Source: Takakia lepidozioides
Lineage: Eukaryota; Plantae; Bryophyta
Direction of reading: 5' to 3'
Assembly (NCBI GenBank): GCA_030704615.1
Contig: CM060734.1
Span: 63,364,001-63,428,000, forward strand
Length of the DNA: 64,000 bases
This document shows positions 1 through 37,121 of this stretch, piece by piece; position 1 is the stretch's first letter; the number at the start of each line of letters is the position of its first letter. Made by a program: the position numbers and the translations under genes. The notes under the pieces were generated by a model that was given only the letters and a program-made list of their open reading frames with translations, searched no databases and was not told the DNA's origin.

Positions 1-300
1 ACCACTACATCCATGCAAAAAATGGGACAAAAAAAAAATGGAAAAAAAAATAAGTGTGTTTCTAGGGTCACTTTTGCAGAACTCTTTATGAAGAGTGCAT
101 AAAGTTGAAGATAACTCAACTTTGGAGTGCAAATGAGAGAACAAAATCTGGTTATGGGTCCAAATGACTTTTGTTTACTCCCAAATTTTGCATGCACATT
201 GCATATGCTATCATTAACCATATGGCTTGTAAATAGAATAAAAAAAAAGTCATCTGTAGGCGAAACACAATTCTCTATCTCTATGATACGTAGTTGCGTT

Positions 301-386
301 TGTCGTGCGCATACATATCACTACACAACTACATCGCTATCCAAACCACACCACATATATATGCACAATAAAGTAGTCTGCCACAA
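301..386 (-). repeat. Terminal repeat A, outer copy (86 bp)
   Basis: Matches 745-830 with 2 G/A differences. Confidence 0.95.
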
Positions 387-742
387 TGATAAGAAAGCTT
401 GAAAGGACACACACTCTCAACACAAGAAATATGAAATCCCTCAACATCACTCGTTAAAACAGAAGTCGAGCCAGGGGCACCCCAAGCTGTGGGGACTCCA
501 CCCCACAACAACCTACACTCCCATCATGAGCACACTCAGTCCTAAACGATGCAGGAGCTCGGTCGCGCAGGCTCAACTCGAGAGAGATGAGCCACGCGAC
601 TGCCGCTCTCGTGAAGATAAGGCCGTTCAGGTGTCAAACTAAACTTGACACCTGATTTAACACTTGACCTAAATCCAAGTGTTAAATACAAATAACTAGC
701 TTTATTCTAGTTGTTTTCACACTGTGCTTATTTAACTTGACA
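387..742 (-). repeat. LTR-like repeat B, 3' copy (356 bp)
   Basis: TG...CA ends; matches 11928-12283 with 1 mismatch. Confidence 0.97.
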
Positions 743-744
743 GC

Positions 745-830
745 TGTCGTGCGCATACATATCGCTACACAACTACATCGCTGTCCAAACCACACCACAT
801 ATATATGCACAATAAAGTAGTCTGCCACAA
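745..830 (-). repeat. Terminal repeat A, inner copy; directly follows the PPT on the minus strand
   Basis: Joined to B by a GC spacer inside the palindrome GACAGCTGTC (739-748). Confidence 0.95.
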
Positions 831-840
831 TCGCCCCCCT
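831..840 (-). other. Polypurine tract of the MTase-Gypsy element
   Basis: Minus strand AGGGGGGCGA immediately before TTGTGG (start of repeat A). Confidence 0.7.
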
Positions 841-1088
841 AGCTGGTGGGTAGGTCCCTCTACCTCCAGATAGCTACAAGATGTAATAGCCACAGCCGTA
901 CTAAGTCCTCTATCACTGCCCCTATTGCACTCAAACTCTATAGACCAAGAGGCCGGGTACAAGAGTAGCCCCATCGTTAGTAGCCATCTTGCAATCTGTG
1001 AACTTGAGCCAGGACCTCGTGTGTTCAAGGTCTCCTAGTAGCTGGGCCTTGCGTTTCTTGTTAGCTTCCATGGTTGTATCCACTCCCA

Positions 1089-2398
1089 CTATCCAATGCA
1101 ATGTGGACATAACCAATCCCCATCCGGAACCATCTCAAGAGGTGGAGTCAAGCATCCCATATGCCAACCTCTAGAGCATCGATCACACACCAGCATGGTG
1201 GCTGCCCCTTTAGCAGACCCACACAACATGCACCTCAAACCTGCAGATACCACTGCCAGGTTTGGGTCAATCCTGCCATCGACATTCGGAAGGTGACATG
1301 GCGCACAATTACACACATGGTCCTTCCAAGTTATGCCATCCCGACCCTCCAAGACCAAGACGCCTGAAGGCAAGACCTCTCGAACCCTCAAAATAACACG
1401 TCCTGCAGTCACATCCAGGGTCGTAGGAGCAGTCTGCTGCAGATAGACATAGTCACCAGGGTTGAATCTCCGAACCCCAGGACGATAGCCTCCACCACGT
1501 ATGGTAGCATACCTCAACGTATCACGGTGTTGTGCAATGGCAAGGTTCTCGAAAGCCATGGGCATGACTCTCTTGAACAACTCTGCACGCTGTCACATGC
1601 ACGTGCCCACACGTCCGGATCGTCAAGGTTAAGAACTGTAGCAGCTTCTCTGCGAATGGATGTAGGCAAATCCGGCTCTCGGCCAAAGAGAAGAAAGTAT
1701 GGTGAGAAGGAGGCAAGTGATGCTTGCTTGCTGAACCTGTAGCCTATGGCTAACCAGGGTAACTGAAGGTCCCAATCTCCTAGGTGTCCCTTCTGCAAGC
1801 CATACTTGCGCAAACCCCTCTTTACTGTCTGAACAACTCTCTCTGCCAAGCCATCGGCCTCAGGATGATCCCGAGAAGTGGTGCGGTGGTCTATCAAGGC
1901 CTTGTCACACAAAGCCTGAAACTCCCCCAAGAACTCTCTCCCTTGGTCCGTGAGTACCTCAGCTGGAGCACCGAATCGGCTAAGCACACAATCCAAGAAT
2001 GCATACGCAGCTCCCTCACTAGCCTTATCAGGCAATGGAACCAATTCAATCCACTTGGAGAAGTGCTCCACCATCACCAACACGTACTTGTTGTGGCGCA
2101 TGGTCAGTGGCAATGGCCCTGCGAAGTCAAGACTCCACCTGTAGCCCAATCCCATGATCGGAAGAGGGTGCAATTGTGGAGTAGGGGCGTTGAATGAAGC
2201 ACGCACCCTGTCACACACCATGCACCTAGCCACAAATTGTTGCACCTCTGTGTGCATACCACGCCACCAATACTGCCCCTGCAGTAGACTATGAGTGCGT
2301 CGCACCCCAAAATGCCCCAACTCCTCATGGGCATGCCGCACTAACCGTGCCCGCTGTGTTGGGTGAGGCACAATCCTCACTCGACCATCCTCCCACAC
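1089..2398 (-). pseudogene. DDE integrase with C-terminal PHD finger (frameshifted near 1600)
   Basis: HHCC (HAHEELGHF...CMVC); SLDFAGP, LTDQGREF, GLAER; C4HC3 PHD CMLC...VCDRC...WHMGC...WLCPHC at ~1098-1232. Confidence 0.93.
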
Positions 2399-2589
2399 TC
2401 AGAGCAGGTGTGTCCCCTCCCACTTGAACCTCTTGGATCGTTGTAGGATCCGATCCCTCTCCTTGGCAGTCACAGTGGCTGCAGTGTCTCCAGTGCGGAG
2501 GTAGTCCAACACAACTGAATCCTCATGTATATCTTTGGCGCCACCTTGCTCATTGCTGTCCTCAGGGTCCTCAGACACTTGATCTACAG

Positions 2590-4062
2590 TCATCCCTGTT
2601 GCAGGTCCAACCTGGCCTTCCGCTGCCAAGATACACAGAAATGCAGATGCATGCCATCCGGGCACCATCTCCTCGTCCGTCTCACCATGCCACCGAGCTC
2701 CTTGTCATCCTGCTGGCTCGTGCATGGATTGCGACTCAACCCATCTGCATTGCGATTGACCAAACCCGGTCGATGCACCACCTGAAAGTCATACTCTTGA
2801 AGGATGAGTGCCCACCGTGCAAGCTTCCCCGTAAGCTTGTCTGACTCCATCAACCACTTGAGTGGTTGGTGATCCGTGACAAGGGTGAAGAGATTGCCGT
2901 ATAGATAGCACCTGAAGTGTGCCACGGCCCACACTGCAGCTAAGCATTCTCCCTCATATGAGCTATACTTAGACTCTGCAGCATTGTTAGAGCGGCTAGC
3001 ATAAGCCACTACGAACTCTCTTCCCTCATCATCCACCTGTGTGAGCACCGCTCCAAGCCCCAGCATGCTCCAATCTGTATGCAGCTGAAAAGGACGCCCC
3101 CTGATAGGTCGTCTCAAGATGGGCGCCGAGGTCAACCTCGCCTTGAGCTCTTGAAAAGCTCGTTCTTGCTCATATTCCCACTGCCACTCCTGGTCCACCT
3201 TGGTCAGCTTGGTTAGAGCCTTTGCAATGGCACTAAATCCCTTAACAAACCGTCTGTAATAGTTTGCTAACCCCATGAAAGCTCGAACTCGGCTCACATC
3301 CGTGGGGCGTGGAACCTGTGCAATGGACTCTACCTTAGTCTGCTGTACCCCCAATCCTCCAGGATATATCATGTGACCCAGATACTCAATCTGGTTGTGG
3401 AAAAACTTGCACTTGCCCGGATGTAACTTCAATCCGTGCGTCCTCAAGCGCTCAAATACCCCCTGAAGGTGTCTCTCATGCTCCTCCACCGTAGCACTAA
3501 AGATGATGATGTCATCTATGTAGCACCGAGCAAACTCCACCCCTGCTAGAATCCTGTCCATGACTCTTTGAAACTCAGCGGGAGCGTTTTTAAGCCCAAA
3601 TGGTAAGAACCGCCACTGGTATAGGCAATCCTTCCCGTGCTCATTGATCCCCCAGAATGCCGTCTTTTGCTTATCCGCCTCCTTGATCGGCAACTGGTGA
3701 TATCCGGATCGTAAATCCAACGTGCTAAAGACCTTGGAATGCCCAATGGCATCAAAGATCTCCTCTGGTGTCGGCATGGCATACCTATCGGACTTGGTCT
3801 GACGATTTACAGGCCGGTAATCACCGCACATACGTCTCTCCGTCCAATTGCCATAGACATCCTTCTTGGCTGGCATCACTGTGGCTGAAGCATACTCTCC
3901 ACCAGAGAGCTCCACCAAACCTGCCTCCCAGAGATCTTGAGTCCTCATCTGAATCAAAGACCTCTCCATGTCACTGTATCTATAGGGTCTCCGAAAGATT
4001 GGCGTGTCAGTGGCCAACTCAATACGGATCTCTTGACCCTTCAGTGCTCCCAAGTCCTTCAA
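2590..4062 (-). pseudogene. Reverse transcriptase + RNase H of the MTase-Gypsy element
   Basis: RMCGDYRPVN, LDLRSGYHQ, LPFGLKNAP, YIDD; RH LHTDWS...YASR...ECLAAVWAV...TDHQPL...NADGLSR. Confidence 0.96.
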
Positions 4063-4524
4063 ACTGAAGGCAAAGCAATTCCTGTAAGCCCTCAGGAACC
4101 GCCGTATACGTCGTCTCTCTCCTCCGGTGACAATGGGTCCAATGTCAGGCTCCCAATTGTCCTCCGTAACTGCAACCTTAAGTCCAGTGGGCTTAGAGGT
4201 AGAGGACGCGTCCTGTGGTTGCTATGCTGCAACCTCTTGAGCAGTACTCCCTTCCTGCTCAGTCAATGACAAGGCCTCATCCTGCCCCATCATCTCATCA
4301 TTGAGAACCTCCTCATCCCGAGAAGAATCCCCAACCTCATCCATCACAGCTGCCTTGGCTGCCAACTCCCTCTGAACCTCGAGCACCTCCCACGTGTGCC
4401 ATGGATATCTACACCCCGTGGTCCTCACCGGCTCGCCCCCACTCGTTGCCTGTACCGTCTCGGTAGGCAGAGAGACCGTCAAGGGAAGTGCACTCCGCAC
4501 TCTACGTTGCTCAGCCATAGCCAA

Positions 4525-5470
4525 GCTGATAATCCAGGTCAAGCAATTGAGATCCATTGCTTGCCCCAACACCTGACGACGTGATGCCTCAGAAAGAGAA
4601 GGCACCGCCGTGGTCCCAGTGGAAAATCCTATAGCCCGCTCTCGCTCGTCGGCATTAGGCTCCACTAATTGTTGCAACTAGCTATCCCACAAGAGGCCAG
4701 GTCCACCATCCCGAAAAGCATGGGATCCTGGGAAGCTGAGCAGTGTAGGTAATGCTGCTCGTGGTTGACCACCCTGTTGACCACTGCCAAAGGCGAACGG
4801 TCATCGTGTCTCACACGTTGAGACTGCCTCCCTGTGTCCAAAATGCCATCCACGGTGAGGTGTGCTGGCCGTTGCACCCCATCAAATGCACGCTTAAGCA
4901 GTGCGGGTGGCATCAAGTTAGTCCAACAAAGCCGTGGACGTGAGCCCGTGATCCCACTGCAGCTGCATCCAGCAACACTGCTGACCCAAGCCACGACCGG
5001 ACTTGATGCACACTAGCCATCACCCTGGCCCGAGAATCACCCATCAGTGGCACATTCTCCAAGATGTATGCTGGAGATACAGCTTGATGAAGCTGCAAGT
5101 GGCGCAAAACCCGCACCATCTCCCAAAACAGACCCGTCCTCGAGTCTCGCAATCCATTGCCATGCCCGGCTGATGAATGCCCTTGGCAGGGCCAACCTGC
5201 CACTATCAGATCAATGGAGCCAACCTGCTCCAAATCTTGCGCCCCCAACAAGAAAATGTCTGCTGGCAAGGCTTGTTGGTATCCACGAACTGCAGACACA
5301 GGAAACAAGTCAGGGTACTGCTGTACCAACTGAGCCACATGGCGCAGTGAGACGCGTCATGCAGTCTCATCCCTCTCCACATACAGGTAATGCCTTACCC
5401 GCACACCTGCCTGTAGCACAGCAGCTAATCCAGTGCTGATCCCGCCAAACATGTCCAGAAGGCAAATGCC
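4525..5470 (-). pseudogene. C5 cytosine DNA methyltransferase domain (DNMT3-like motif order) inside pol, disrupted by frameshifts and a stop
   Basis: Motif I LDMFGGISTG, II YVERD, IV AGWPCQGHS, VI ILENV, VIII SRAH/RPRLCWTNL, IX ERERAIGF, X RQVLGQAMD; spread over ORFs 5357-6052, 4913-5338, 4665-4994 and 4222-4677. Confidence 0.92.
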
Positions 5471-5849
5471 TTTATCCGGATACTGCCACACAATAGGTGT
5501 GGTATCCAATGGTGACAACTGAGGTGGTCCTGGTGCAATACCTGCACTCTCCTCCTCTCCTGACGGTACAAAAGCCTCTACCCAAGCTTGTTGCACCCGT
5601 CGATCAGCAACCTGCTGCAAATCCTTGCTCGTACCCCAGAATGGAGTGTGAGCAACCATGGCAGGCAACTCCACCATACTATGCATGTCATCCTGCTCTG
5701 TTGGAGGTGGCACATCTTCTGCATGGGCATTGCCTTCCAGCAACTCTCCAGGCCAACTAACTGCAGCTGTAAAGGCGGCTAGTGTTGGCATCTTGCCCCG
5801 TTGGGCAGCCGCAATACCCCCAATGAATGTCATAGGGAGCTGTGCACGA

Positions 5850-6210
5850 CGACCATCCCCTGACTGCCATCCAGGCCTGTAGAATGCTGACTCCTCCCAA
5901 AAGTCCAGGGTGAAGCCCATGGGGTATAACACTGCCCCACCAACGAGGACATCGTAAGAGACCGCGTCTGTCACAATGGCCTTGGCTCGCATGATTGAGC
6001 CATTGATAGGATGATCCGGCTGCAGTCTAATGGCCAACTGATGCCGTGTCATGCCCCGAGCTTACTCTGATCCTCCCAGAGATGTCTATATCTGGAAAGG
6101 ACAAGGCTCCATATCCCCCTCCATGAGGCCCAAACCTGCAATAGCAGCTCTGCCCAACATCAGTGGCTGAGCTCCCGAGTCCAACAAGACCCGCAGTGGC
6201 CGGTACTTCT
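5850..6210 (-). pseudogene. Retroviral-type aspartic protease
   Basis: VLLDSGAQP ... YDVLVGG; in-frame stops at 6086-6088 and 6062-6064. Confidence 0.85.
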
Positions 6211-6899
6211 TGCCTGCCGGTCCACTCAAAGAGAAAATGCCATCCTGGTTGTCTAACAAGACAACTCCAGGTGTCACCATGGCGCGCTCAAAGGCTGGCC
6301 TAGCTGGCAGCTTCGTCAATCTGACAGCTGCAGCTTGCCATGGCGCAGCCGTGGCAGTCTTGACCCTCAAATCCGAGGATCCCTCTGCCACTACACCTTC
6401 CAGTAACTCCGCAGAAGATGAAGTGACCTCCCCACTCTCACAGAGTGTTGCTGCTAGTCTGAACACTGCAGCTGGTCTTACCCCCGGTGTCGCAATCATG
6501 GTTGCCAAGAACAGTGGGGCTTGACACACAGAGGTGGCTGCCCCCAACAACACACCGGCTGCACTAGCCTTGGCAGCAGGTGTCAGTGCTGCACGTGTAG
6601 CTCTCCCCAATGGCATAGAAACCTCCGCCTCGGTAACAGCCGGGCGAGAACTAGGTGCCATGGATGGCGTTGACACTGTCTCCGCCAAGGTGAATGACTT
6701 AGGCAGCCTCGCCTGACGGCTTGCCTCCCCACGTTGTGGATCCAACTCCACCTCTGCACCTCGTGGCTCAGGAACTCGTGCTGCTCCTCGAGTCACGGCT
6801 GCAGCAGACTCCACCTGCTCTAGTGGTAGTGCTGCTCCGCACATGAATCCCATGCCTCCCATATCTCCTCGGAGGTGGACCATCCCGCCTGGGAGCCGG

Positions 6900-8424
6900 T
6901 ACCACCTGAGCTATAGCCATTGCAGCGAGCCTCTGCTCTAGCTGCTGAAGCCGGTTGGCCATGCCTTGATCAACACCCTGACCTCCGCGTCCATGGCCAT
7001 ATTGAGCTTGCCCTTGGCCTGCACCTCGTGCCCGACCACCTCGTCCTCTCTGGGCTGGTCCACCTCGCCCCCGGCCACCATTGTTCCCTTGGAACTGGCC
7101 TGGGCCAACTCAGGATGCAAGTCATAACACTGGGCATCTCCATGCCCATACTTGCCACAATGCCCACACTGCAACTGTGCAGGCTGTGTTTGTGCCGGCC
7201 TTTTGCCACTGTCTGGGCAATCTCTCTTGACATGGGGTCCTCCACATGTCCAACATATCACCCCTGGTTGCTGTTGGCCTGCAAAAGATGCCACGGGCCT
7301 CTGCACCTAAGGTCCCCTGTAAGCTCCATGGAACTTGGGTTGGGAAACCTTGCCCCCCCGCACACCACCGCTCCGCCACGCCTCAGCCCCCGCCTCCCCC
7401 CCGCGCCACCACTCCGCCGCGCCTCAGCCCCACCCTGACCACGCTGTTGGGCAGTCCCTTGTGCCTGTGGGCTGGCAGCTGCGCCTCGTGCAGGCATGTC
7501 CTTGCCAAACCCAATGGTAACAACTCGCTCCTCCACCATGTTGAGCTCAACCCGCTCAGCCAGCAGAAACACATCTGCTAATGTGGGTTGGGCTGCTTGT
7601 AACAGGGTTGCATCCCGCACCCTTCTCTTGAGCTCCTTGTCCAAAATTCCATACCAGAATTGGATTGCCTGAGCTTCAGTAACCCCTTGGGTCACACTTA
7701 TCAAGCGCCTCATACGAGTGTAGGCCTCTCGCAAGCTCTCACTGGGTTTGCGCTGGAAGTCTTGCAAACTTCGTAGCTTCTCTGTCCGTACACCTTGGTA
7801 GTTCCTCCGCAACTCCTGGAACTCCACCACCGGGTTGAATCTAGGCACATGTGTTGTAGTCATGGCAGGAGGAGTAGTAGCAGCTTTTGAACTGGTACCA
7901 CCTGCAGAAGTACCGGCACTACTTGTTCCACTACTAGTGCTGGTAGTGCGAGATATCGGTACTGATGCAGCTACTGGTCGCGTCGTGCCTCGAGTAATGG
8001 AGACGTAGTCAGGTGACCAATACATCCTCCACTCCTCAATCTCTGCTTCATGTCCTCGCCTGAACTCGTGGTAATCGTCCATAGGCGGGCCTTCCAAATG
8101 CTGGAACAGTCCCTTCCACGCCATGAATGGGGTGAATAGCTGTGGATTGCGCATCTGCTGCAAATCACACCAGCTGTCGAACTCCTGGATAAAGTCATCC
8201 AACTCAATTGTGCCTACAGCTCCAGAGTACCTACGAGGCCTCTTGGTAGCTCCATACATCTCCTCCATGTCGTCCCACAACAATGGCGAATGAAACTGCA
8301 CACCTGTTGATGAAGCCTCCGAGTCTGTGTCTGACTCTGCACTAGTTGAGGGTGGCGGTGAAGGTGGTCTGAACCGAATACCTCGTCTTGTGAACCCACT
8401 CTCATTGTTACTGCCTGTAGCCAT
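6900..8424 (-). pseudogene. Gag with two CCHC zinc knuckles (frameshifted)
   Basis: Capsid-like FQRKPSESLREAYTRM...FWYGILDKEL; knuckles CWTCGGPHVKRDC and CGHCGKYGHGDAQC. Confidence 0.85.
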
Positions 8425-9004
8425 ACTCCCCTCAAAACCCTTGGGTAACTCCGTGATGACACTCACAATGTGCACCTCCCCCACGTGACACTATAGGGGT
8501 CTAGTACTAATTCTAATAGTGACACGGGTGGGCACCTGTTGCAGTTTAAGGGTCATATCCCAATGGCTCAGGGCACCTGCACCTGCATCCACCGCAATAA
8601 CTCCTATGGTTGGCTGGTCATCAACCCAGCCTCACCATAGAAGAAACACTGGTGGTCTTGCTGGTCATCACTCCAGCCTCACCACCGACAGCATACTCTA
8701 GGATTGACCGGTGATCAAATCCGGCCTAATCCCTATGAAAGCAAGCGCCCACACAAAACCAACATGGCACACAGTCAAGTATGCAGGTGTTGGGGGGGAT
8801 CCAAACACAAGAAATCAAAACATCAACACCCCCACACCAAAATCCAGCTGCAATGCTGATCCTGCAGAATATCCCAGCCCAAAACCCCGGACTGACTGGC
8901 CTCCGCCAAGAGAGGCTTTGGCAACTACGAGTACAAGGTAATGAAAATAGTACAGAGATGGAGGGGAAGAATAGAAGCCCGCCCAACCAAGATCTAATCC
9001 TGAT

Positions 9005-9754
9005 CTATGCTATCAACTTCCAGACTTCTCTCAAAGTGCCTCGCTCTACATGATGGTAAGGTGTAGGAGGTATATCTATGTCCAGAAACCTGCCACTACC
9101 CTTGTCCCAAGCTACAGTAGCTCGCTCTAACCAACCCTCCTCCTCTTTCTGCCAGGTAGAGACAAAGTAATACTCCCATATCTCCCGCTCACTGAACATT
9201 AAAGAAAATAAAGGTAGGGTCTGATAGTCTCTCAACTCGAAAGCTTTGAGACGGTTGCGGGTGTCCTCATTGTGAATGACTGCATCTCCTTCAAGTAGCA
9301 CAAACTTTTCATTGCTAATGAACCCCCGCTCGTGGTTGCCTCGTGTAGAGTGTGTCCGGCTGCAACCATGTCTGATTGCACAAACTTGTGTAGCTCCTGC
9401 TCCTCTGCTCCAGTACACCACGGCCTTGTGGCTGAACACATTTGTCCCCGGGGCTGACTTTGGATGTGTTCCAAGCCTAGCTTTCACCCACTTTGGTATT
9501 TCACTTACAGCTGCAGAACTGCTGGCTCCAACAGAGTTCTGACTGTCCAAAGCGATATTGAGGCCCTCAACGCCAACTACAGCAGTCTGTTGTCTACTGC
9601 TAATGCTTGACTCCCAGTATGCAATCAACTCGTCCAACTGTTCTTCACTCAAATCAATCTGAGTTCCTTGGGAAACATAAATCCTGTCCCCTTGTGTGCA
9701 CAGGCTAAGAGAAGAGACCTGCCCTTCAATTACGTCCTCATTTCCCCCAGCCAT
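9005..9754 (-). CDS. Extra upstream ORF (249 aa, unknown function) of the MTase-Gypsy element
   Basis: Uninterrupted ATG-started ORF, co-oriented with gag, protein-like composition; no family recognised. Confidence 0.55.
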   Translation of the reverse strand: MAGGNEDVIEGQVSSLSLCTQGDRIYVSQGTQIDLSEEQLDELIAYWESSISSRQQTAVVGVEGLNIALDSQNSVGASSSAAVSEIPKWVKARLGTHPKSAPGTNVFSHKAVVYWSRGAGATQVCAIRHGCSRTHSTRGNHERGFISNEKFVLLEGDAVIHNEDTRNRLKAFELRDYQTLPLFSLMFSEREIWEYYFVSTWQKEEEGWLERATVAWDKGSGRFLDIDIPPTPYHHVERGTLREVWKLIA

Positions 9755-10238
9755 ACAAGGAGGACATCCACAGATTTGTCTCTCAAATAGACCAAAATTG
9801 GTTCTAGAAACAGAATTGTGGATCTTTCACGACACACTCACACTCTAAAAATTCCATAGATTTTTAGCAGAGTCCCAAAAACAGAAACCAGGTCTAGATA
9901 GGTAGATTTCCCCTTTCTGCAGCTATCCCCTCAAAACTGAGTCAAACAGAGCTCATTTGACAAAGATATGACCAACCAGGCTCTTTAAACATTTAAATTA
10001 GATAAAAAAGGCCCCCCCTTTTTTTTTTAACACCAAAACGTTTTTGCCATTACAACCTGTTCCCAGGTTATCTACGGGTTCCCGAGGCCGTTCCCCTCCA
10101 GGCTTCTCCAGGCACCAAGAGCTCATTAACTCCAAAACTCGACCTCAATTGGGTGGGGTATCACACCCTGGAGGCGATTTGCTTTTCTCTGCGCGTGGGC
10201 CTGCCTCCTCGAGCTTTTAGGACGGCAAGGCAGCAGCC

Positions 10239-10350
10239 ATGTTTACAGCACGCAGGAAGATTCAGAAGGAGAAGGGGCTCGAGCCTGATGAGTTTGAAGA
10301 GGCTGTAGCCCATGCCTTATTCGACCTAGAGACTACAAACCAGGAATTGG
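10239..10350 (+). pseudogene. RPS7: Captured N-terminal fragment of 40S ribosomal protein eS7
   Basis: [37 protein letters not shown] matches the plant eS7 N-terminus; similarity is lost after ~37 codons. Confidence 0.85.
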
Positions 10351-11911
10351 GGCGATTTCAAGAGCAGATGCACTGCGCAGCACCTTCATGGCTTATGGAC
10401 AGGCAGCCTGCTGTAATGTGGTCGTCTTTGCATGGAATCCAAGGCCAAGACCAGCTTGAAGTTCCATCAACTTGGTCTAATTCGCATCTCTCGCCAGCGA
10501 TTATTGTTGGCTTACAATGGTTTCCGCCTTCCTGTTACTGCTCGTGTTTCTTCAGTGTGCAATTTACAGGTCAGGGATCGGCGACAACAGGCACCAGATT
10601 GCCCCGTCACCACCCCCACAAGGCACAGACAACTTCACTGCCAGGAAAAAGAAAGTGAACCATGCTCAGCATGCAGACCCAAGGCCTGGGTCCATCTGCA
10701 TCAGCTCCAGTATAAGAGAGACAATCATACAGTTATCAAGTCTCTACAGGAATTTGCGATTGCCTCAGTAAAGTGGAACTCAATCTGCAGCCTCCTTCCG
10801 CCGCCTCTCCATCAACCCTTGGAGGCTCTTGTCCGCTGGCCTCATCCGTCAGCATTGCTTCTCCTGCTACGAGTCTTCGCATTTCCTCCCCTGCTCGCCT
10901 GTGCAGAAGTAAGTACCCTTGACGCCGAAATGACAGTAGAGGCAAGTGATCAGTTGGAAGTGTTCAATGATGAGACAAGTAGAGCTGGAGCTCCCTTGAC
11001 CTGTATCGCCACAATCTTGGACTCGGGCAGTGTGCTGAGTTGAAACCTGGGTTGTGAACCACCATTCGACTTTCCACCAGTTTCCACCTCAAAATGGTGG
11101 AACCAAGGTGCAAGGCAGCAACAGCTACTTGGTTTTGTACAAACCTGAAGCACTTTTTTAAAAAAACGACTTTGCACCTTGCACTCCCTGAAATCAACAA
11201 TTCCCCCAACAACCCTTTTTGTCAGAAAGTTGGTTGCTTATGCAGATAATCGACCAGGTGAAAGCAGCTTTCCCAGCCACAATCACAAGTAGCATGAAGA
11301 TTTGTGAGACTCCTGGTTTTGCAGTGTTGATGATATGCCAGCAATGGGCTCCCCGTTCTCCATCGCTTTGCTGCTAGGCTTTCTCTCTCGGGGCCTGCAC
11401 CTTCAATCAGCTCGCTGCGCCGTGCTCTACCTACCGGCGCTGCATTTACTGGAGGAAGCGGATTTACAGCTCCTCCTTCAATAGGCTCCGCTACACCAGC
11501 TCCACCTGCTCTTCCGCTGCCTTTCCTGACCGCTTCTGGTCTGTCCTGGTTTGAATTTAACACTGGTCTGTGCACATCGAACTAAGGCGAGCAGCCCGGC
11601 CATCTCCAGGCACGGAAGTTCTACCCATCTGCTCGATCACAGGCTCCTCCTTTAAGTCTCGCACTTGGTCAGTTTCCCAACGGCCAATCGCTGCTACTCC
11701 GCGATGTCTCCTCACCGACCAAAACAAAGGCTGCTTCCATGCAGTGTAGCTCCATCATGCCCGGCGGCCTCATGCCAGAACCAACGCTGATCGAAACCTG
11801 CATATTTTGTTTTTGTTTTTTTTTTTAAGCTTCTAAAACTAAGCACTACTTACACACAGGTAATCGTACAAGTGCTAACCCTCAACTCCTACCTTGCACT
11901 CACAGGTAAGA

Positions 11912-11928
11912 GCTCATCTCTCTCGAGT
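11912..11928 (-). other. Primer-binding site complementary to the element's own LTR (self-priming type)
   Basis: GCTCATCTCTCTCGAGT (11912-11928) is the exact reverse complement of 12117-12133; no TGG-type tRNA PBS present. Confidence 0.8.
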
Positions 11929-12283
11929 GATAAGAAAGCTTGAAAGGACACACACTCTCAACACAAGAAATATGAAATCCCTCAACATCACTCGTTAAAA
12001 CAGAAGTCGAGCCAGGGGCACCCCAAGCTGTGGGGACTCCACCCCACAACAACCTACACTCCCATCATGAGCACACTCAGTCCTAAACGATGCAGGAGCT
12101 CGGTCGCGCAGGCTCAACTCGAGAGAGATGAGCCACGCGACTGCCACTCTCGTGAAGATAAGGCCGTTCAGGTGTCAAACTAAACTTGACACCTGATTTA
12201 ACACTTGACCTAAATCCAAGTGTTAAATACAAATAACTAGCTTTATTCTAGTTGTTTTCACACTGTGCTTATTTAACTTGACA
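11928..12283 (-). repeat. LTR-like repeat B, 5' copy
   Basis: 355/356 identical to 387-742. Confidence 0.97.
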
Positions 12284-12456
12284 CGTTCAACACTAGAATG
12301 ACCCATTGAATCAACTTGGTTCAAGCTCATATTTGGTCCACATGTGCATAAGTATGTTTAGATCACATATGCAAAGTTGCAACCCACACGAGCAACAAGA
12401 TTTTTTTTTACATAAAGCGATTAATCGGATGTATACAAAGTACATCATGAGAATAT

Positions 12457-14095
12457 CTACAATGCCCCTCTACGCGATCCTTGTCTCAAAGGAACCCTAT
12501 TTCTATCATACATATCCCACTCACGTTGTAATCGGAGGTCCCAATCATCCCGGGAGAACTCGTATGATGCAAATAGTTCACTGCCAGCCCTAATAGTCCT
12601 ACTAGCACATGTCATCACAAACATGGGCATCCCCTCACAGTATACTGACGTATGACCACCAAAGCTCTCATGCCCATTGCTTCGCTCGTCCCATACTACA
12701 TTGGTTCTCCTAGGATGACCAAAAGAACTATTGTCCAGCCCAACAACATTGCCGAAGATGTCGGGGTCACCATCACAAAATCTGATCTCAATGGAAGACA
12801 ACCCCCGTCTACGTACATCCTGTTCGTTGACACACAAAATGTAGGGTAGGATGTATGGGGCTTCGAGGCGTAATGTACGGAACTCCACGGAGGTGTAGTA
12901 TGGACCGTAGTAGGGAAACAAGTCCACCATGCTGTTTCTCCGAGGAGGAACCACAATATCATTGACCGTGAATAAACCCCGACCCATAGCAGGGTCTGTA
13001 GCGGCTCTCACAACATACCGTCCCCCCCAATACTCGAACTCCACATTTTCTCGGATGGGGGTGGGAAGGTCGAGATGATTCCCTCAACAACGAGGCTGGA
13101 CGGTCCTCAGTAACACAGTCCTATGCACTTCCCATCGGGGGCGAGGATCCGGCTCAGGCCGCCTAAGCCGAAGGGGAGGAAACCTAGGGCGAAGCCGACC
13201 CCTCCTAGGAGTTCGGGGGGCACATGCACGTGGAGGTGGAGGTGATACTGCTGGTGGAGGAGATGGAAGTGGAGGTGGTTGAGGATGTAATGTCGGAGGT
13301 GCAGCCGGGGGTACAACGTCCGGATCAGGTACAACCAGAGGTGGATCAGACAAAAAAATAGACGGGGGGGGGCCCTGCTCGTCGCCGGCCATAACGCCTA
13401 CGACACCTACGATACCCCTCGACCCTACGCATCTCATCTACGTGCTGCTGGGGGAACCAACTGGTCACATCGGGCACATGCTCTGGCACAAATTCTGCAA
13501 GTAGACCGGACGCGAAATGCCTCCTGTGCAATGTGATTGCGAGCTTGGGCATCAAGTCGTGGCTGCAACGTGCGTAGTGAACAACGCATCAATACTTATG
13601 TCGTAATTTTGATTCATGTATGCTTACCAATCATACTACATTATTAGATAAACCTAAATGTACCTTAAATGAATGTTAATGAGAGGGGTGGGAAAAACAC
13701 TCACCTTTGCCGCATCCGCAATCTTGTTCTTCTTGTAATGTTTTTTGACAACATGCGGTCACCGCCTCGGTGGTCTGGTGCCGCCCGGCGGTATCCGTTC
13801 CCAACACAGTGCACCAACACTCAATCCTGTCGGGGGGGTCAAAGGTGGACGTGGTTGGACGGGGTGGCCCGCGAGGGGGCAACCCGCGGCGCGCCCGACT
13901 CGATCCCGGAGTGTCAACATTCTCCGCATCACCTGAAATTTGGCCCTGGTCCCTTCTACGATTGTGCCCGGCAGCCTGTATTGGATCAGGTGCAATGGGT
14001 GCCTCCTCGCCACGAAAAATGGTCGCTCTAGGGCCACAATCGATTTGTGGTACTACCTCCCCATCCTCGAGGGAGACGGGTCGATGTTTCCTCAC
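12457..14095 (-). pseudogene. SET-domain protein gene with Pro-rich linker (spliced, disrupted)
   Basis: GRGLFT-x-NDI, PYYG, GNVVGLDNSS...TNV, ASRTIRAGSELFASY in 12457-13044. In frame with the Pro-rich ORF 13084-13437 across one TGA. Donor AAAG|GTGAG near 13704. Confidence 0.75.
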
Positions 14096-15159
14096 TATCC
14101 CATCCTAATTAACACACACCACCAACACTTTCATTTGGGTTTCTTAGTTTTTATTTTATTTATTTATTTTTTCATATGGTACTGGGTTAGGGTGTTTGCT
14201 TTTCTTTATGGTGCTGGGTTTTGGATTGGCCATTTTGGTTGTGGGTCTTGGGGTTAAAAGGATAAACGGTGTAATTAGGATTCACATACCCAAAATGTGG
14301 TTCAATCTGATAATCGCAAAGCGCTGGGTCTCAACAAATTTTTCCATAGTGTGAGCATCCTGAAGATAGAACGAGAACAAGGATTTATTGTCTTGGGCTC
14401 TAGCACCATAGGGATGCTCCGCCTTTGGTTACCAATTTTGAAAGCCCCGAGGCTGAGGCATAGGGTTTTTTTTGCTCTAAACCCTAAATCCAGAAAGGCC
14501 GGCCGTCGCCTCCTGCGACACCCTGGCGTCGCATTGGACGACGAGTTTTATTTTTTATTTTTTAACTGGGGGTCGCACCCCGCGACGAACAGCCGTCGCG
14601 GGGGGCGATGTGTTTTTTTATTTATGGGGCCGGGGGTCGCAAGAAACGACGGCCAGCCGTCGCAATCTTCATTTTTACATTTCAAAAAAGGGCGGGCGTA
14701 GGCGTGCGACGGCCAACGTCGCACATGGACGCTGCGCCTTTTTTTTTCCCCTAAGTGCTTCAAGCATCTCTTTCCCCTCCCGCTTTTGTTTGTTCTTTGG
14801 GAGAGAGGTAGTTCAGAGAGTGGGGTTTAGTGTGGAGGAGAAACGCACCTGCTGCTGAGCCCGAGGTGGTCGCAAGGCCCCAAGGAGTTTGCCCCAACAC
14901 CGCTCCAACGCCCAAGGTAAGCACCGCCTCCTCCCTCACTTTCTGTCTTTCTTTCTTGCCCTAAGCACGGGCTGATGTCTCTCTCCCCTGTGTGGTAGGA
15001 ATGCCACGCAGAGGCGCGACCTATCGAGCTGAAGAGAGAGAGAGCTATGGTGAGCGGGGGAGAGACGCCTTGCAGCGGCGGGGACCCGCGCCGCTGGTAG
15101 CCGCGACAGCACCGCAGCAGCTCGCTTCAAGCACCAGCAGCAGCAGAGGTACGTCAGGG

Positions 15160-15590
15160 AAATTGCACTCTCCCTTTCCTCTCTACTTCTGTTTACTGTT
15201 CAAAGGTAGTCTTCATGCCTTGACTTTAAATTTAGGTCTGGTGCCAAGAGTGGGATAGACCCTTGAGCACATCCATGATGTCCTCCCCCATGTCACAGAC
15301 TGGAAACAGGTTCAGGGAAGTTTTCTTCCTAACTTCATTTTCATCGGACAATTTTCTGGTAACAGACATGGCTTTGGACACTACACTCTCTAAGTCAGGT
15401 TTATCCAGCAAGGTCAAGACTTGCGGGTCCAGATTCAGATCCTTGAGAATCTCTTTTACTCTCTTCTCCCAGGGCTCACCCTGTTTGACATGGCGGTCAT
15501 GTTTCCAAGATATAGAATCGATTAACTTAGGATATCTGGTGTTGGACATATGTTGCAGCTGAACCCACCATCTGACCTTGAATTTAGGGT
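15160..15590 (-). mobile_element. LINE ORF2 C-terminal fragment
   Basis: Homologous to 18620-19400 and 38965-39665. Confidence 0.7.
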
Positions 15591-15599
15591 GTCGGGAGC

Positions 15600-17700
15600 T
15601 TAAAAGAGAGCAGCACAGAAGAGAGGGAAGATATTTTTTGTCATGTCAAGACAAAGACAGGACCCCTAGGATCGTTGTCATGAAAGAATAATCAGACATA
15701 TCAGCCACTTAAGAGTGGCACCATCCATCAATCACCAAGCTTAGAAAATCCAAAATTACATCCATGCACAGTAACGTGTTCATGTCAGTATTATTCATAA
15801 CCCAAACAGTATGCCACTGATGTTGATTGACCACCAGTCATGATCATGATACACATTCAGAGGTATGGGTGGGGTGGCGGGTACTTGGCCATATTTTGGC
15901 CTTGATGTGGTGCAGGTCAAATAATCATACAAATTTATTGTCTGCAAGCTGTAATCCAAGCATGCTTACTAAAACCCCATGGGTGTCATGGAGGGTTTTC
16001 TCAAAAAAGAAAGGAACACCTGGATATCACAGATTTAAATACCTTGCCTTGCCAATATTTGTTTAGACTGGTCTGCAGCACAGCTTGCCCCCACAGGGGA
16101 GGTGGATATGTCTGGTAAGTTTTCCAGACTACCCCTATACCTTTATTTCTTGCTATAGCTGAAAATCAAAGTTCATGACACAACAAGGTAAATATAAAGG
16201 ACTGCACACATATCCTGTGACAGTATATGATACTGTCAGTACACCCTTCACATCATTCCACATTTGACCATGTCATTACACCATGTCCAGGGGGTATTTC
16301 CACTTGACCATCCTGGCTGCCTCAAAAACCAGTTACCATTTATATTACTGCCATATTTCAGTGTCAGCCGAATAGCCGCAGGCAGCAACTTCACCATCAT
16401 AAACCAGGCTGTCACCACATAACAGAGGTTTTCCACTGGCTGGGCCGAAATAGCCCATCGTAGAAAGCATTACACTTGTTCTTGAAAAATCAAGGAAGGA
16501 AAGAGGTAGGATCAAGAAAAACCATAGAGTAGTTTAGTTTTTCAGCATTTTAAGATGAGTCCCTGGCAAGCGATTCCTTCCCCGGCTCTGCAATCCCACT
16601 TGGCATCCAGCAGCACCTAGACATCAGAATATTATGTGGAAGCCCTCACCTGTGCCCGTCCCAAAAACAACCACAACGCATTGTGAGTTAGTGAGGATGC
16701 ACGAGGTGAGTAGCAGGCTTCCACACTTGCTATCGAGGTCAAATCCACTTCAATCTAAGCGCAGAGAATGCCAAAGCAAGCAAGGAAGCAAAACCAGCAG
16801 AAAAAAAACCTTTTTTTACTGTTTGGGGGAGAGTCGTCATCTCTCCACAAGCCTAACCATGCAGGGAGGACTCCGCCAACACCACAACACTGCTACCTTA
16901 ACCAAAGCAAGGTCTTGCCAAGCACAAGAAAAAAAGAGCTTGGTCTCAAAAGGTAGGGTTTATAAAGGGAGGGAGAGAGACTTCCTTGTGCCGCCATTCA
17001 TCAAAGATCCAAAGGAGGGCTCCTAGGGAAACGTCATAGGCATGCAGGTGGTACCTCCACCATCACTGCCGTGGTTCCCTTGTGCAGCAAAAAAATAAAC
17101 AATTGAGACAGGGAATCTTCTCCCATCTCTAAGCCACCGCCATCGCATTAAAGAGCCCGCCCAGGCGTCGATCACAGGAGCCATAAACACTCAAGGATTG
17201 GCAGCTCAAGGTATCTGCAGCACGAGCACCATCGCTCCTCACAAGCCGCCATTGCGCGCGCTCTCGCAGCGCAAAAAGAAAGACATTAGGGTTGCGCAAG
17301 GTTTTCCCCTGTCTGGCCCATCATTCATCCTTCTCAGGATGAAAAACATCCGCCAGTCTGTCCGCCCGACGGACGTTGTCTGTTTCTCATCCGTGGAAGA
17401 TGGAAGACATCGTGCTTTCATCCTGTCTTGCACTCAACGGATGTAGTCCGTATTTCATCTAGGTTAGATGAAAAAACATGGGGGGGTTTTTTTTACTTGT
17501 CTTGCCTGTATTTAGGTCCCGTCAGATGAAGTCCTTTTTTCATCCAGGTTGGATTGAAAAAGTAGAAACTGACGGGAGTTTTGCAACTCATAGGTTTTTT
17601 AGTGAAAATATTTCACTAGGATTTTATTTTTTTAAATTTATTTTGGATAAAAAAAAACATCCAAAATTCCCTGCAACCCAATTTTGCAATTTTTTTCAAT
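15600..17700 (-). repeat. Repeat module, copy 1 (inverted, diverged)
   Basis: 16640-16760 is the reverse complement of 20420-20540 and 24135-24255; TCATCC/GGATGA sites at 17320-17560. Confidence 0.6.
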
Positions 17701-17879
17701 TTCCTAAAAAATGGAAGTCGGGACAACAATTCCATAAGCCCAGTGTCCAGAGGGAGAGAGAGGGAGAGAGAGGGAGAGAGAGGGAGACATCAGGGGGCAA
17801 CAAAGAAATGAAAAAAAGGTGGGGGGGGGAGTGACTGAGCAGCTGCTGCTGCTCAGTCACTCCGCCCCCCCACATTCTC

Positions 17880-19400
17880 TGTTTTTCTTTGTTGCCCCCT
17901 CTCTTGGGGAAACGAAAGGGACAGATCCTACCTCTGTCAGGGGTTGACGTTGGTAGTAAGACTTACCTTCACATATAGAATTAATCCGGGTTTTCCAGAT
18001 ATCCTCTACAAATCCCTTCACACAAGCATCAATTTGTTGTGTGTGAGATGCCCAAAAACTAGGCCTCAGAAGAGGCCAGGCTTTTGGCTCAGCCTCGACT
18101 TTTTTGAAGTTAGTAAACAGAGGTACATGCACAATTCCCTTGATAGATTTGAAGAGAGCATCTCTTTGGTGAGAGAACCCCGGACAGTGTATCAGAAAAT
18201 GAATAATGTCTTCAGGTTGTCCACAGACATGGTTGGACACTACAGCCTCTAAGTCAGATTTATCCAGCAGGGTGAAGACTTGCAGTTCTAGGTCCAGGTC
18301 CTTGAGAATCTCTTTTACTGTCTTATACCAAAACTTAGCCTGTTTGACAGGTCGGTGGGCGGTCCTGTTTCCAAGATATAGAGTCGATTAACTTAAGATA
18401 TCTGGTGTTGGACATATGTTGCAGCTGAACCCACCATCTGACCTTGAATTTATCTCGTCAGGAGCTTAAAAGAGAGCACCACAGAAGAGAGGGAGAGAGA
18501 GGGACAGAGAGAGGGAGTGAGAGGGAGACATCAGGGGGCAACAAAGAAAAGAAAAGAAGGTGGGGGGGGGAGTGACTGAGTAGTTGCTGCTGCTCAGTCA
18601 CTCCCCCCCCCCCCCCCACATTCTCTGTTTTTCTTTGTTGCCCCCTCTCTTGGGGAAACAAAAGGGACAGATCCTACCTCTGTCAGGGGCTGACGTTGGT
18701 AGTAAGATTTACCTTCACATATAGAATTAATCTGGGTTTTCCAGATATCCTCTATAAATCCCTTCATACAAGCATCAATCTGCTGTGTGTGAGATGCCCA
18801 AAAACTAGGCCTCAAAATGGCCTGGGCTTTTGGCTCAGCCTCGACTTTTTCAAAGTTAGTAAACAGAGGTACATGCACAATTCCCTTGATAGATTTGAAG
18901 AGAGCGTCTCTTTGGTGAGAGAACCCCGGACAGTGTATCAGAAAATGAGTACTGTCTTCAGATTGCCCACACAACGGGCAATTGCACTCTCCCTTTCCTC
19001 TCTGCTTCTGTTGGCAGTTCAAAGATAGGCTTCCTGCCCTGAGTTTAAATTTCAGTCTAGTGCCGAGAGTGGGTAGACCCTTGAGGTCATCCAAGATGTC
19101 CTCCCCCATGTCACTGACTGGAAACAAGTTCAGGGAAGTTTTTTGCCTAACTTCATTTTCATCAGACAGTCTCATGCCAATAGACATGGTTGGACACTAC
19201 AGCCTCTAAGTCAGATTTATCCAGCAGGGTGAAGACTTGCGGTTCCAGGTCCAGGTCCTTGAGAATCTCTTCTACTGTCTTCTGCCAGGACTTAGCCTGT
19301 TTGACAGGTCGGTGGGCGGTTTTGTTTCCAAGATACAGAGTCGATTAACTTAGGATATCTGGTGTTGGACATATGCTGCAGCTGACCCCACCATCTGACC
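17880..19400 (-). mobile_element. Two tandem LINE ORF2 C-terminal fragments separated by a hairpin
   Basis: FKLRAG...ECNCPLCGQSEDSTHFLIHCPGF: a CCHC zinc finger typical of non-LTR ORF2 ends. Confidence 0.8.
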
Positions 19401-21960
19401 TCCCCCCCCCCAACCCATTTTTTTTCATTGTTTCCCCCTGTCTCCCTTTGTCTCCCTCCTCGGAACTGGCCGGTTGCATCAGTGTTCTTTTCATGATCTT
19501 CCATCTATACCAGATGGACTCTAAAAGGTGTTTTCACCCGACTTGTAAAGGTTTTCTATCCACACTAAAGTACCTTTAAGAATGACCTATAATTTTTCAT
19601 TCCTCTTTTATTGACTTTTATCTATATCAGATAAGTCACCAGAGAATGAAGAATTACCTCCATAAGGGTTATGACACTGGCATCCTATCTATAATTTTTC
19701 CATCCATGCCGGATGAAAAATACCAGGATTTGAATTCAGTTTATTCCCCTTTTATGCTTTTTCTCCATACTGGATGAGGCTTTCTCTTAAGGGATGATGA
19801 ATTACCTGTTAGGATGAAAAACCGCTGCCCTGGATGATGGATACTACTTTTTCATCCTGCTGATGGACCTCATCCAAGCAAATGAGCCTATTTATTTTTT
19901 TCATCTGGACCGGATGAAAAAAGCAGCTTATGATGGAGATTTTTTTAATTACCCTTAATTACTGCTAATTAAGGAGTGAAACCCTAACTCCTACCCTATA
20001 ATCTACTGTTTAAACCTAGCTAACGGATGACATCCGTCGGGTTCTTAAGAGAAAGGGTATTGATTATTCATCCTCCGGATGAAAAATCGGGCTCTGCCCT
20101 AGGGTGTCTCTCCCGCTGTCAGCTGCATTCCTCGTGCTGCTGAGCTCGCGAGTTATGGCGTCTGAGCTCTGCTGCTACCCTGTTTGTTGCTTCATGCTGG
20201 ACAAACTCCTGGGGACGCGCAATGGCGGCGTCTTGTCTCTTCTCACAGGCGGGAGAACCCGCTGTGATGGCATCGTCCCTTTCCCTCCTCTGGCTTTTAT
20301 GTTTCGCAGCGGCGCTTTGGTGGGGAAGTATATCGCTCCCTCTCCCTTCCCCAATCGCTCAAGGTGTTTTTGGTGATTAGGGTTCCCTTTTACTTCACGT
20401 CTTTTTCTCTTGTTTTTGAGGTTCTTAGTTGACATCGATGACAAGTGTAGGGGTCTGTGATTCAATTGGGGTTCCACAATCCTCACTAACCCATTGGTTT
20501 TTGTGGGGGCTTGTGATGGGACCAAGTGCGGATCCCTACCTACTTTGAATTCTCTTGAGCTTGCAGATAAAGATGTGTGCAAAAGGAACATATTGTTGCT
20601 GCCTGCAGCCCCGATTTCGGCCCGCTTGCTCCCGGTTTGACATGATGATGCTTGCTTTTGACTTATCTTTTGCTGCTGTTGATGGAGCACTTTGGCCTAG
20701 CAGCCTTGTCTCATGCAACACTGAATCCTACCTTGTCTTGAATCTTTGACAGCTTTGCCTGTGGATTTTTAGACTAGGTTTCCTTTTTTTTTTGGCCTTA
20801 AAAGAGGATTGATGGTGTAAGGGACAAGTCATAAGTGGCTGTTTGGCTCTAAGGATGAGGAGACCTGAGTTTTGTTGAAAAAGACAGCCTGATAAGGCAG
20901 TGACAGGCCGTTTTCAGACCTGGATTTGTTGTGGAATGGAGCATAGTGAGGTTCTATTTGCAAAACATGGCATTAGCCTCCTGTGAAACAGTGACGGTAA
21001 GCTCGAAAGGACTCTGGCCAATGATTATTTACTTTATTTTCCCATATGAACAGCCACCTGCATTGTATGATTTATCTTGGCCAAGTGGGCTTGGTCTTGG
21101 GCACTCAAAGTGTATGTGTGTCCAGATCTGGATGCTGTGACAGGGCATGCCTTTCTTCCATGCCAAAACGCCTTACATGATGTATATCTTGGGGCAAGTG
21201 TACATGATGTAGAATGAAGTCGCAGTCAGTCTTGTCATGCCCAAAGTGATCACTTGGTTGCATGTTTGAAGTCTGATTTACTGCAGGCTGGGCCAGCAAG
21301 AGTCCTATGTGCACAGGTCCTGAATATATACAATGACAGACTGTTCTTACATACCCAGAAGGCCTTGCACGATGCATGCTTTGAGGTGCTTACATTTGGC
21401 CAAATGTGAAGCGGCAATATGGCTTATCATGCCCAAGAAGTGTACTTGGTGGCAGGCTAGAAGTGTAATTAATTGCAGGCTGGTCCTTCCTGCTGCCGGT
21501 GTGAACACTCACTGAATGTGTTGTAGGGCAGACTGTTCTTACCTACCTTGCATAATGCTTGTCTTGGATCACCTCAAGGTACTTGTGTATACATATCTTG
21601 GATCTGTAATGTGGCAAGAAGTTCTTATATGCCCATGATATCTTGCATGGTGCATATCTTTTGGATAACTATGGATGTTATAATCTGAGGCTGCAATCTG
21701 ACTTATATTGTGCAAGAGGGTCACTTGGGTACATGACAGGAATCTGATTATGAACATACCCCGCCCTCCCACCCTGTTTTATCATGACTGAATGGGTGGC
21801 ATCACTTGGTGTGTTATGACAAGACTGGAAATGTTAGATGGTGCCCTGTCATGGGCTGTTTATGTCTTTAATTGACAAATGACCCTAGTTGGTCTTGTCC
21901 ATGTATTGACATGACATGAATATCTTCCCTCTCTCTTATTAACTTTTTCTAACCCCTCTT
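19400..21960 (+). repeat. Repeat module, copy 2
   Basis: Palindromic-site array 19480-20090, AAACCCTAA, GC-rich block; homologous to 23150-24728 plus 38347-38960. Confidence 0.65.
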
Positions 21961-24728: not shown

Positions 24729-25867
24729 TGTTAGAAGACTGTAGGGGACTTAGACACTTATACGGGATCTGTAGGGTACCCTTAATTTTGCACAGACTGA
24801 GACAACAGGAGCCTTAGGGGTGACAGCAGCGCACTGTAGAGGGGGTTACACAGTCGTCAACAGCCGACACAAGCCCGTCACAGTCGTCACAGCCCACACA
24901 GCCGACACAGCGCACAGTCGTCACAGCCCACACAGCCGACACAGACGCCAGTCGTCACAGCCACACACAGCACACAGCCCGTCACAGTCGTCACAACCCA
25001 CACAGCCAACACAGCCGTCACAGTCACAGCAGACACAGCCAACACAGCCCGTCACAGTCGTCACAGCAGACACAGCCCACACAGCCCGTCACAGTCGTCA
25101 CAGCAGACACAACCCTCACAGCGGCACAACCCACACAGCCAGTCACAGCCCGGCACAGCCACACAGCCAGTCACAGCCCGTCACAGCCCGACACAGCCAA
25201 ACACAGCCAGTCACCGCTTGACACAGCTGTCACGATAATAGGGAACGAAGAGTAGGACAGGGAACGACTGTGGGGAACAACACCTGTGAAGGGAACATGT
25301 TAGTTCACAGACGACGGTTAGAGAGGGAAACGGTTAGAACCGCGGGATAGGAGGATAAAGGGAGAAACGGGGAATGAAGGGGGATCATCATTATTCGGAG
25401 GAGGACTTCGGAGTCAGGCTGGAGCGGAGATCGGAGGCAAGAGATGGAGAGCACGATGAAGGAGAAAAGAGGATTAGTAGATGCTTGTTATATGCAAAGC
25501 TGTAGTGATATTGGAGAGCAGATTAGAGACATAATGGCTTCGGCCTGATACCTGATAAATCATAATCTGATACTTATACGATACAATCACACTGTGTAGA
25601 GAGATCTGAGAGAAGCTGTGGATTGAATGGATGAGTGAAGGAAACCGATAGATTGATGAAGCAAACTGATACTTAATTATCAATGCCAAGGGTAGCTAAG
25701 ATGAATGCGGAAAGGGAAACGCAATAGGAAACACCCCCATGATACACTAGCTGTAGGTCATGACTGATTGTTCTGCGCGGGCTGAGTACTTAGAGATTTC
25801 CAACTCTTCTATCTTGGAGTTTCCGCCTCGGATAGCGAAGGGATGGGTGAGTAAAAGCCGCGCGACA
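24729..25867 (+). repeat. 5' LTR (1139 bp) with a GTCACAGCC/CACACAGCC tandem array
   Basis: Near identical to the 3' LTR outside the array. Confidence 0.95.
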
Positions 25868-26455: not shown

Positions 26456-26475
26456 AGAAATAAAAGACATGGGAC

Positions 26476-28423: not shown

Positions 28424-28437
28424 GACACCAGAATGAG

Positions 28438-37083: not shown

Positions 37084-37104
37084 ACCGTGAGGACACGGCT
37101 TTTT

Positions 37105-37118
37105 GAGGGGGGAAGGGG
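37105..37118 (+). other. Polypurine tract
   Basis: GAGGGGGGAAGGGG just before the 3' LTR. Confidence 0.9.
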
Positions 37119-37121
37119 TAA

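Follow-up and report, generated by a model that had tools for sequence, protein, structure and literature searches.

The window, by which we mean the whole 64-kb stretch of DNA analysed here, carries on its minus strand a Ty3/Gypsy retrotransposon that runs from 12283 to 301, begins with TG, finishes with CA, and is ordered gag, zinc knuckles, protease, methyltransferase, reverse transcriptase (RT), RNase H, integrase and PHD finger. The same four bases flank both ends as a target-site duplication (297..300 on the 3' side of the element and 12284..12287 on its 5' side). By repeat comparison, the terminal sequences are split in a DIRS-type layout, A-coding-B-A-B: the 356-bp A repeats, A1 at the TG start of the element (11928..12283) and A2 (387..742), agree at 355 of 356 positions, and the 87-bp B repeats, internal B1 (745..831) and terminal B2 ending in CA (301..387), at 85 of 87. 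A sequence-only reading of this DNA had the 355/356 figure right but attached it to the B repeat; the repeat concerned is the 5'-terminal one, A in this scheme. Related loci L019, L062 and L064 share the layout, with L062 and L064 representing a single insertion that has its own 4-bp target duplication.

The internal junction of B1 and A2, CA-GC-TG (738..749), forms a short palindrome that unites both element end sequences, and it is identical in L008 and L029 and near-identical in L064. Immediately upstream of B1 lies a polypurine-tract-like G run (832..844), kept in L019, L029, L062 and L064, which may serve in priming. The tyrosine recombinase of DIRS/Ngaro elements was not found in the element, which has rve and H2C2 domains and the 4-bp target duplication instead. 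The split-repeat layout could derive from a two-LTR circle opened at the CA-GC-TG junction. In these elements with split repeats, a DDE integrase and a 4-bp duplication, the palindrome looks like a shared attachment site of a circular intermediate.

All coding parts of the element lie on the minus strand. Gag (7441..8424) is 56-62% identical to the related proteins P0400, P0388 and P0008, the last an intact Marchantia gene model, and matches PF03732 weakly (E 0.006, below cut-off). Two Cys/His zinc-knuckle-like motifs (7127..7255) were recognized from the sequence, with no Pfam match in the window copy. The aspartic protease (5890..6300), which has LLDSGA at 6187-6170 and is interrupted by stops at 6088 and 6064, is collinear with that of relatives, whose same region matches PF13650/PF13975, and has no Pfam match in the window copy itself. 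The broken methyltransferase domain (4525..5470) is followed by a linker of about 93 codons (4225..4524), which frame and relatives identify as the C-terminal tail of ORF1, and by an in-frame stop in the context TAG-CAA-CCA (4216..4224). Beyond this stop come RT and RNase H (2704..4158; PF00078, PF17917 and PF17919; YIDD at 3522-3511; frameshift near 2700), a DDE integrase with an H2C2 zinc finger (1595..2398; PF17921 and PF00665; frameshift near 1592 and stop at 2401) and, at the end of ORF2, the PHD finger (1092..1232; PF00628, E 4.5e-11).

From the 5' repeat to gag (8425-11927) the element measures 3.5 kb, as against some 1.1 kb in L062 and L064. This stretch contains an orphan open frame of 273 codons upstream of gag (9005..9826, minus strand, from the ORF list), which had no match in Pfam, the Atlas or 80 related loci, and, antisense to the element, what is probably a captured piece of a gene for ribosomal protein S7e (10239..10355, plus strand; PF01251, 21.7 bits against a cut-off of 33.5, E 0.0002). 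Summed contig depth, which is no measure of copy number, is much lower over about 10-11.9 kb. The low depth, the orphan frame and the S7e-like fragment hint at a subfamily with captured host DNA. We found no tRNA within the window and no Rfam match in 1-13000.

The flanking genes are of embryophyte type, as had been proposed: a glutamate carboxypeptidase exon near 60 kb has its best match in Sphagnum (71-72%), followed by Ceratodon, and an intronless PPR gene (49221-52300, plus strand) has seven 303-bp repeat units and E/E+ motifs, with a change of frame near 52000. The host is probably a moss and differs from the Sphagnum species among the matches. A second Gypsy element (about 25120-38350, plus strand) has near-identical terminal repeats and 9-10-bp tandem arrays but no methyltransferase, and its long 3' ORFs (33755-37083) gave no Pfam match. 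Beside the methyltransferase-bearing element, a 208-codon ORF (12457-13083, minus strand) that looks SET-domain-like by eye likewise had no match in Pfam. A dispersed repeat family with short ORFs occurs in both orientations (15150-19450, 39050-39620 and 57850-58350).

The methyltransferase domain and its relatives

Every motif claimed for the domain was found at its place and in the non-permuted, DNMT3-like order, all on the minus strand: I (LDMFGG, 5458-5441), II (YVERD, 5383-5369), IV (GWPCQG, inside 5212-5180), VI (YILENV, 5068-5051), VIII (GSRAH/RPRLCW, 4954-4917), IX (ERERAIGF, inside 4659-4624) and X (RRQVLGQAMD, 4581-4552), numbered in the customary way. The PF00145 profile matched the piece with motif IV (51 bits, E 1.7e-13, cut-off 22), and the rearranged motif order of plant DRM was not seen in the domain. 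The description of the domain as complete is right for the motif set, including the catalytic PC, ENV and SAM-binding motifs, but not for the reading frame, which is broken by two stops (5359-5357 and 4680-4678) and two frameshifts (near 4940 and 4770) and uses three frames. An intact relative, P0001, is 73-79% identical over the two main pieces of the window domain. Its best sequence matches among solved structures are DNMT3A/3B (E 6e-12, collinear from motif I), with weaker ones to DRM2 (2e-4) and HhaI (4e-3), and its predicted model (pLDDT 89) matches DNMT3A with E 4e-19 and a target TM of 0.83. An Atlas search returned C5 methyltransferase clusters only, the top one streptophyte. By motifs, profile and relatives, then, this is a DNMT3-like, non-permuted C5 methyltransferase domain between protease and RT.

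Bryophyte names are attached to 18 of 34 homologues of the domain (14 Marchantia, 2 Calypogeia and 2 Sphagnum). Among metagenome loci (the best 80 of 160), protease precedes the domain in 43 of the 54 that have 1 kb upstream and RT follows it in 49 of the 56 that have 1.2 kb downstream. The catalytic Cys is kept in 62 of 64 loci and the motif VI Glu in 63 of 66. Between window and loci, the domain has a median dN/dS of 0.10 (from the 63 of 71 pairs that could be computed), compared with 0.08 for RT, 0.07 for integrase and 0.17 for protease; a single subfamily contributes many of these loci, and relative to the window their synonymous sites are close to saturated. For closer loci (dS 0.15-0.3) the value is higher for the domain than for RT (0.59 and 0.43), and near-identical dead copies, with dN/dS near 1, are in neutral decay. 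Judged from these codon comparisons, the domain is under purifying selection. The outcomes named beforehand as fatal to the sequence-only reading did not appear: profile and structure matches exist, other copies retain the domain, and it does not evolve neutrally across them.

Given that the copy is broken and that another captured gene fragment (S7e) is apparently present, one might suspect a host DNMT3 or DRM fragment caught by chance and decaying neutrally, or an assembly chimera. The same domain position in dozens of loci and in three genera, together with the low dN/dS, refutes this reading. DUF3444, the C-terminal mark of plant host DNMT3 in the account of Yaari et al. 2019 (PMC6453930), was not found in P0400, P0008 or P0009, and one contig from a second organism spans 825-5778, which argues against a chimera; we leave the explanation practically no chance.

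The window copy itself is defective, with at least five stops and at least five frameshifts relative to natural relatives. Its paired repeats show 3 mismatches over 443 bases. The identity of the A repeats gives an age for the insertion rather than for any activity of the copy itself, so the earlier inference of recent activity holds for the insertion event and fails for the copy, which with at least 10 lesions was likely moved by an intact helper. The second-organism contig aligns over 4481-5500 as a single piece, with 62 differences, is gapped at both frameshift sites and differs from the window copy at 4680, indicating that the breaks are not common to all copies. Of 40 differences listed along 1021 bases, at least 12 separate the window copy from nearly all other contigs and from the second organism, more than the 0.3% expected from the repeats. 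The copy was likely dead already when it was inserted, mobilised by a helper whose presence we infer; the alternative is that the repeats were homogenised. In dead copies of the L007 type, C>T/G>A changes reach about 0.20 at CG, 0.25 at CHG, 0.13-0.15 at CTA and 0.06 at other CHH sites, in line with host methylation of these copies.

Searching 1.84 billion representatives, we obtained 269 proteins under E 1e-30. No K. nitens copy occurred among the hits of the homologue searches. Of the 251 proteins that were classified, the domain sits between RNase H and integrase in 118 and on the protease side of RT in 57; a further 74 were not long enough to decide, and 2 had no hit. Named members of the RNase H-integrase type are chlorophyte (Haematococcus, Cymbomonas, Hariotina and a Tetradesmus transcript set). 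Chlorophyte Gypsy polyproteins, namely P0327, P0364, P0311, P0314 and about 110 others, have the related DNMT3-like domain in this position with a PHD finger behind; REM1 is counted among the PHD-bearing Gypsy elements of Chlamydomonas. In Closterium models and further proteins, a single ORF spans domain and RT. In trees run in quick mode with SH-aLRT support only, drawn from sets exclusive of host DNMT3, DRM, bacterial and K. nitens sequences and in one case using 25 of 112 chlorophyte-type rows, the window falls among bryophyte copies, with an SH-aLRT of 100 in both the RT and the domain tree, and the domains of chlorophyte type cluster together (SH-aLRT 98). It is plausible from these sequences that the bryophyte and chlorophyte domains have one origin, and the related domains between RNase H and integrase in chlorophytes suggest an old green-lineage family. 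A scan of viral contigs with a sister-clade protein gave no match.

A conserved stop between methyltransferase and RT

The domain had been described as contiguous with pol and packaged with it. We found instead that a family-wide in-frame TAG (4224-4222), 93 codons past the domain, closes the Gag-protease ORF with the domain at its end, and that RT begins behind this stop in the same frame. The stop is kept in 53 of 54 loci and, when only copies differing by 3% or more are counted, in 46 of 47; no other column among 499 codon columns has a stop in more than 12 of the 47. CAA follows it directly in 53 of 54 loci, while CARYY follows only 2 of 673 decay stops, and the stop context forms an island of 11 identical bases within an otherwise diverged linker. 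The context is a candidate readthrough signal of the known type I motif, UAG-CAR-YYA (PMC3542737; PMC5397192), as these sources describe it: the window copy (TAG-CAA-CCA) is an exact match, as is L056, from a more distant subfamily and in frame; in the main Sphagnum-type subfamily the stop is followed by CAA-CCC, which agrees at 5 of 6 consensus positions; and in L066 and L076, likewise more distant, the homologous site reads TAA-CAA-TCA. ORFs from Marchantia and Calypogeia, together with P0400 and P0388, which are single-ORF Gag-protease-methyltransferase proteins, stop 72-78 residues past the domain, and those of a sister group at about 50% identity stop 82-141 residues past it. With the stop conserved and intact relatives ending there, the enzyme is likely made at the level of Gag.

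How ribosomes would reach RT is a separate matter. From the sequence context, readthrough of the stop is the probable route, with no clear stem-loop downstream of it (z -0.6 and -1.8 against mononucleotide shuffles). The same anatomy could also be expressed by splicing with the TAG as part of an acceptor, by re-initiation or from a second transcript, and the methyltransferase would still be at the Gag level unless a splice removed the domain. The TAG is a possible splice acceptor, a T-rich stretch precedes it in Sphagnum-type copies, and five Marchantia and Sphagnum gene models fuse the domain to RT with a shortened linker; Ogre elements are spliced between protease and RT. However, the five models join at differing places and none begins at the residue after the stop, a simple pattern scan found no shared donor-like site in the linker, and an acceptor has no need of the conserved CAA-CC. 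Re-initiation could use an in-frame ATG two codons past the stop in the main Sphagnum-type subfamily, but the window copy lacks it, and there the next in-frame Met comes only after about 85 codons, within the RT region. Copies with TAA at the stop, 11 of 47 and scattered, are near the G>A background for this context (0.15) and thus do not separate readthrough from splicing. On balance, we regard these alternatives to readthrough as quite unlikely.

What the enzyme may do

Our preferred model, which we hold to be reasonably probable, is that the window contains a dead copy of a family in which ORF1 encodes Gag, zinc knuckle, protease and methyltransferase, RT, RNase H, integrase and PHD finger follow behind a leaky stop, and the enzyme, made and packaged at Gag level, would methylate new DNA. 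ORF1 would yield Gag, protease and methyltransferase in equal, high amounts, and the few ribosomes passing the stop would add RT, RNase H, integrase and the PHD finger. The protease would free the methyltransferase inside the particle, where it could modify new DNA either ahead of integration or during it, and the PHD finger would read chromatin at the integration target. The family enzyme is fairly likely to be catalytically active; that cDNA or the freshly inserted copy is its main substrate has only slightly better than an even chance.

The domain might instead act mainly in trans or non-catalytically, binding DNA or chromatin in the particle or the nucleus or altering host methylation, with cDNA not the main target. 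Synthesis at Gag level would supply enzyme far in excess of what a single cDNA requires, and the Klebsormidium domain was negative in yeast, a result its authors deem inconclusive in the account given in PMC5890265. The codon-junction CG observed/expected ratio is 0.35 in the element and 0.20 in the methyltransferase-free Gypsy of the window; the element is not the more CpG-depleted of the two, so no footprint of self-methylation is visible in this comparison. A non-catalytic role sits poorly with the catalytic Cys and Glu and the SAM-binding motif being kept across bryophyte copies, and with catalytic residues being kept across 18 distant relatives, and the chlorophyte elements, which place the domain inside pol beside integrase, point to work on cDNA. 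We consider action mainly in trans or without catalysis somewhat unlikely.

More broadly, and tentatively, at rather less than an even chance, an ancient green-plant Gypsy lineage may have kept one DNMT3-like enzyme from chlorophytes to bryophytes while shifting its place in the polyprotein, with a leaky stop in bryophytes giving each particle capsid-level amounts of an active de novo enzyme, which would methylate new copies in advance and might write methylation into the host genome too.

Comparison with known systems

The proposed kinship in kind with the Klebsormidium element is borne out. As described in PMC5890265, KnitGypsy-Dnmt3 shares with our element the Ty3/Gypsy set and order (protease, RT, RNase H and integrase), an intronless DNMT3-type domain without rearrangement (the fold being assigned here through P0001), the DIRS-type A-coding-B-A-B repeats and purifying selection (Ka/Ks under 0.2 there, median dN/dS as above here). 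Its domain lies in one ORF with RT and RNase H, whereas here the conserved stop intervenes, and its host is Klebsormidium nitens rather than a land plant. With four features shared and the same-ORF arrangement absent, we regard our element, compared by description, as a variant rather than a member of KnitGypsy-Dnmt3. SymbioDIRS-Dnmt3 of Symbiodinium, which in the same account methylates CG de novo in yeast, likewise combines a retroelement-borne DNMT3 with split repeats, but has a tyrosine recombinase in place of the DDE integrase found here. Only a distant match to it was seen here (P0372, E 8e-10).

Similar to type I readthrough systems, as presented in PMC3542737 and PMC5397192, our element has an in-frame UAG with CAA-CCA between a structural ORF and replication enzymes; the commonest subfamily departs from this with CAA-CCC. 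The leaky-stop gag-pol of fungal Copia (PMC3441728, as outlined there) is alike in kind, with the difference that the stop here follows protease and an accessory enzyme and does not come right after gag. Gypsy-7a_cRei of Chlamydomonas also has a PHD finger in its polyprotein but, unlike our element, is given no cytosine methyltransferase in the description in PMC9940879. Plant host DNMT3/DRM enzymes, by the account in PMC6453930, share the DNMT3-type catalytic fold; our domain differs in having neither DUF3444 nor the rearranged order and in lying in a retroelement ORF.

Our literature search found neither the stop nor such elements from bryophytes or chlorophytes reported in the text of PMC9033089, PMC3350952, PMC8557442, PMC6673714, PMC10952607, PMC6453930 and bioRxiv 10.1101/363937 among others, whose figures and supplements may hold such a report. 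PMC12344493 mentions retrotransposon DNMT3 in 'streptophytes' in its text, and its supplementary trees may hold such copies. Bryophyte DNA methyltransferase surveys will need to set mobile copies apart.

What a transposon gains from its own methyltransferase is a question left by de Mendoza 2018, as put in PMC5890265. The Marchantia family makes it testable, being in a genetic model with methylation mutants and having intact Gag-protease-methyltransferase ORFs; in Marchantia met mutants transposons are de-repressed (bioRxiv 10.1101/363937). The conserved stop predicts a high ratio of enzyme to RT, which separates methylation of the element's own cDNA from action on the host. The presence of the domain in chlorophytes, Closterium and bryophytes calls into question a capture special to Klebsormidium. 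A retrotransposon with its own DNMT3 is already known from Klebsormidium (as set out in PMC5890265), and what is new here is the wider host range and the expression layout, in which a conserved stop splits the domain from RT.
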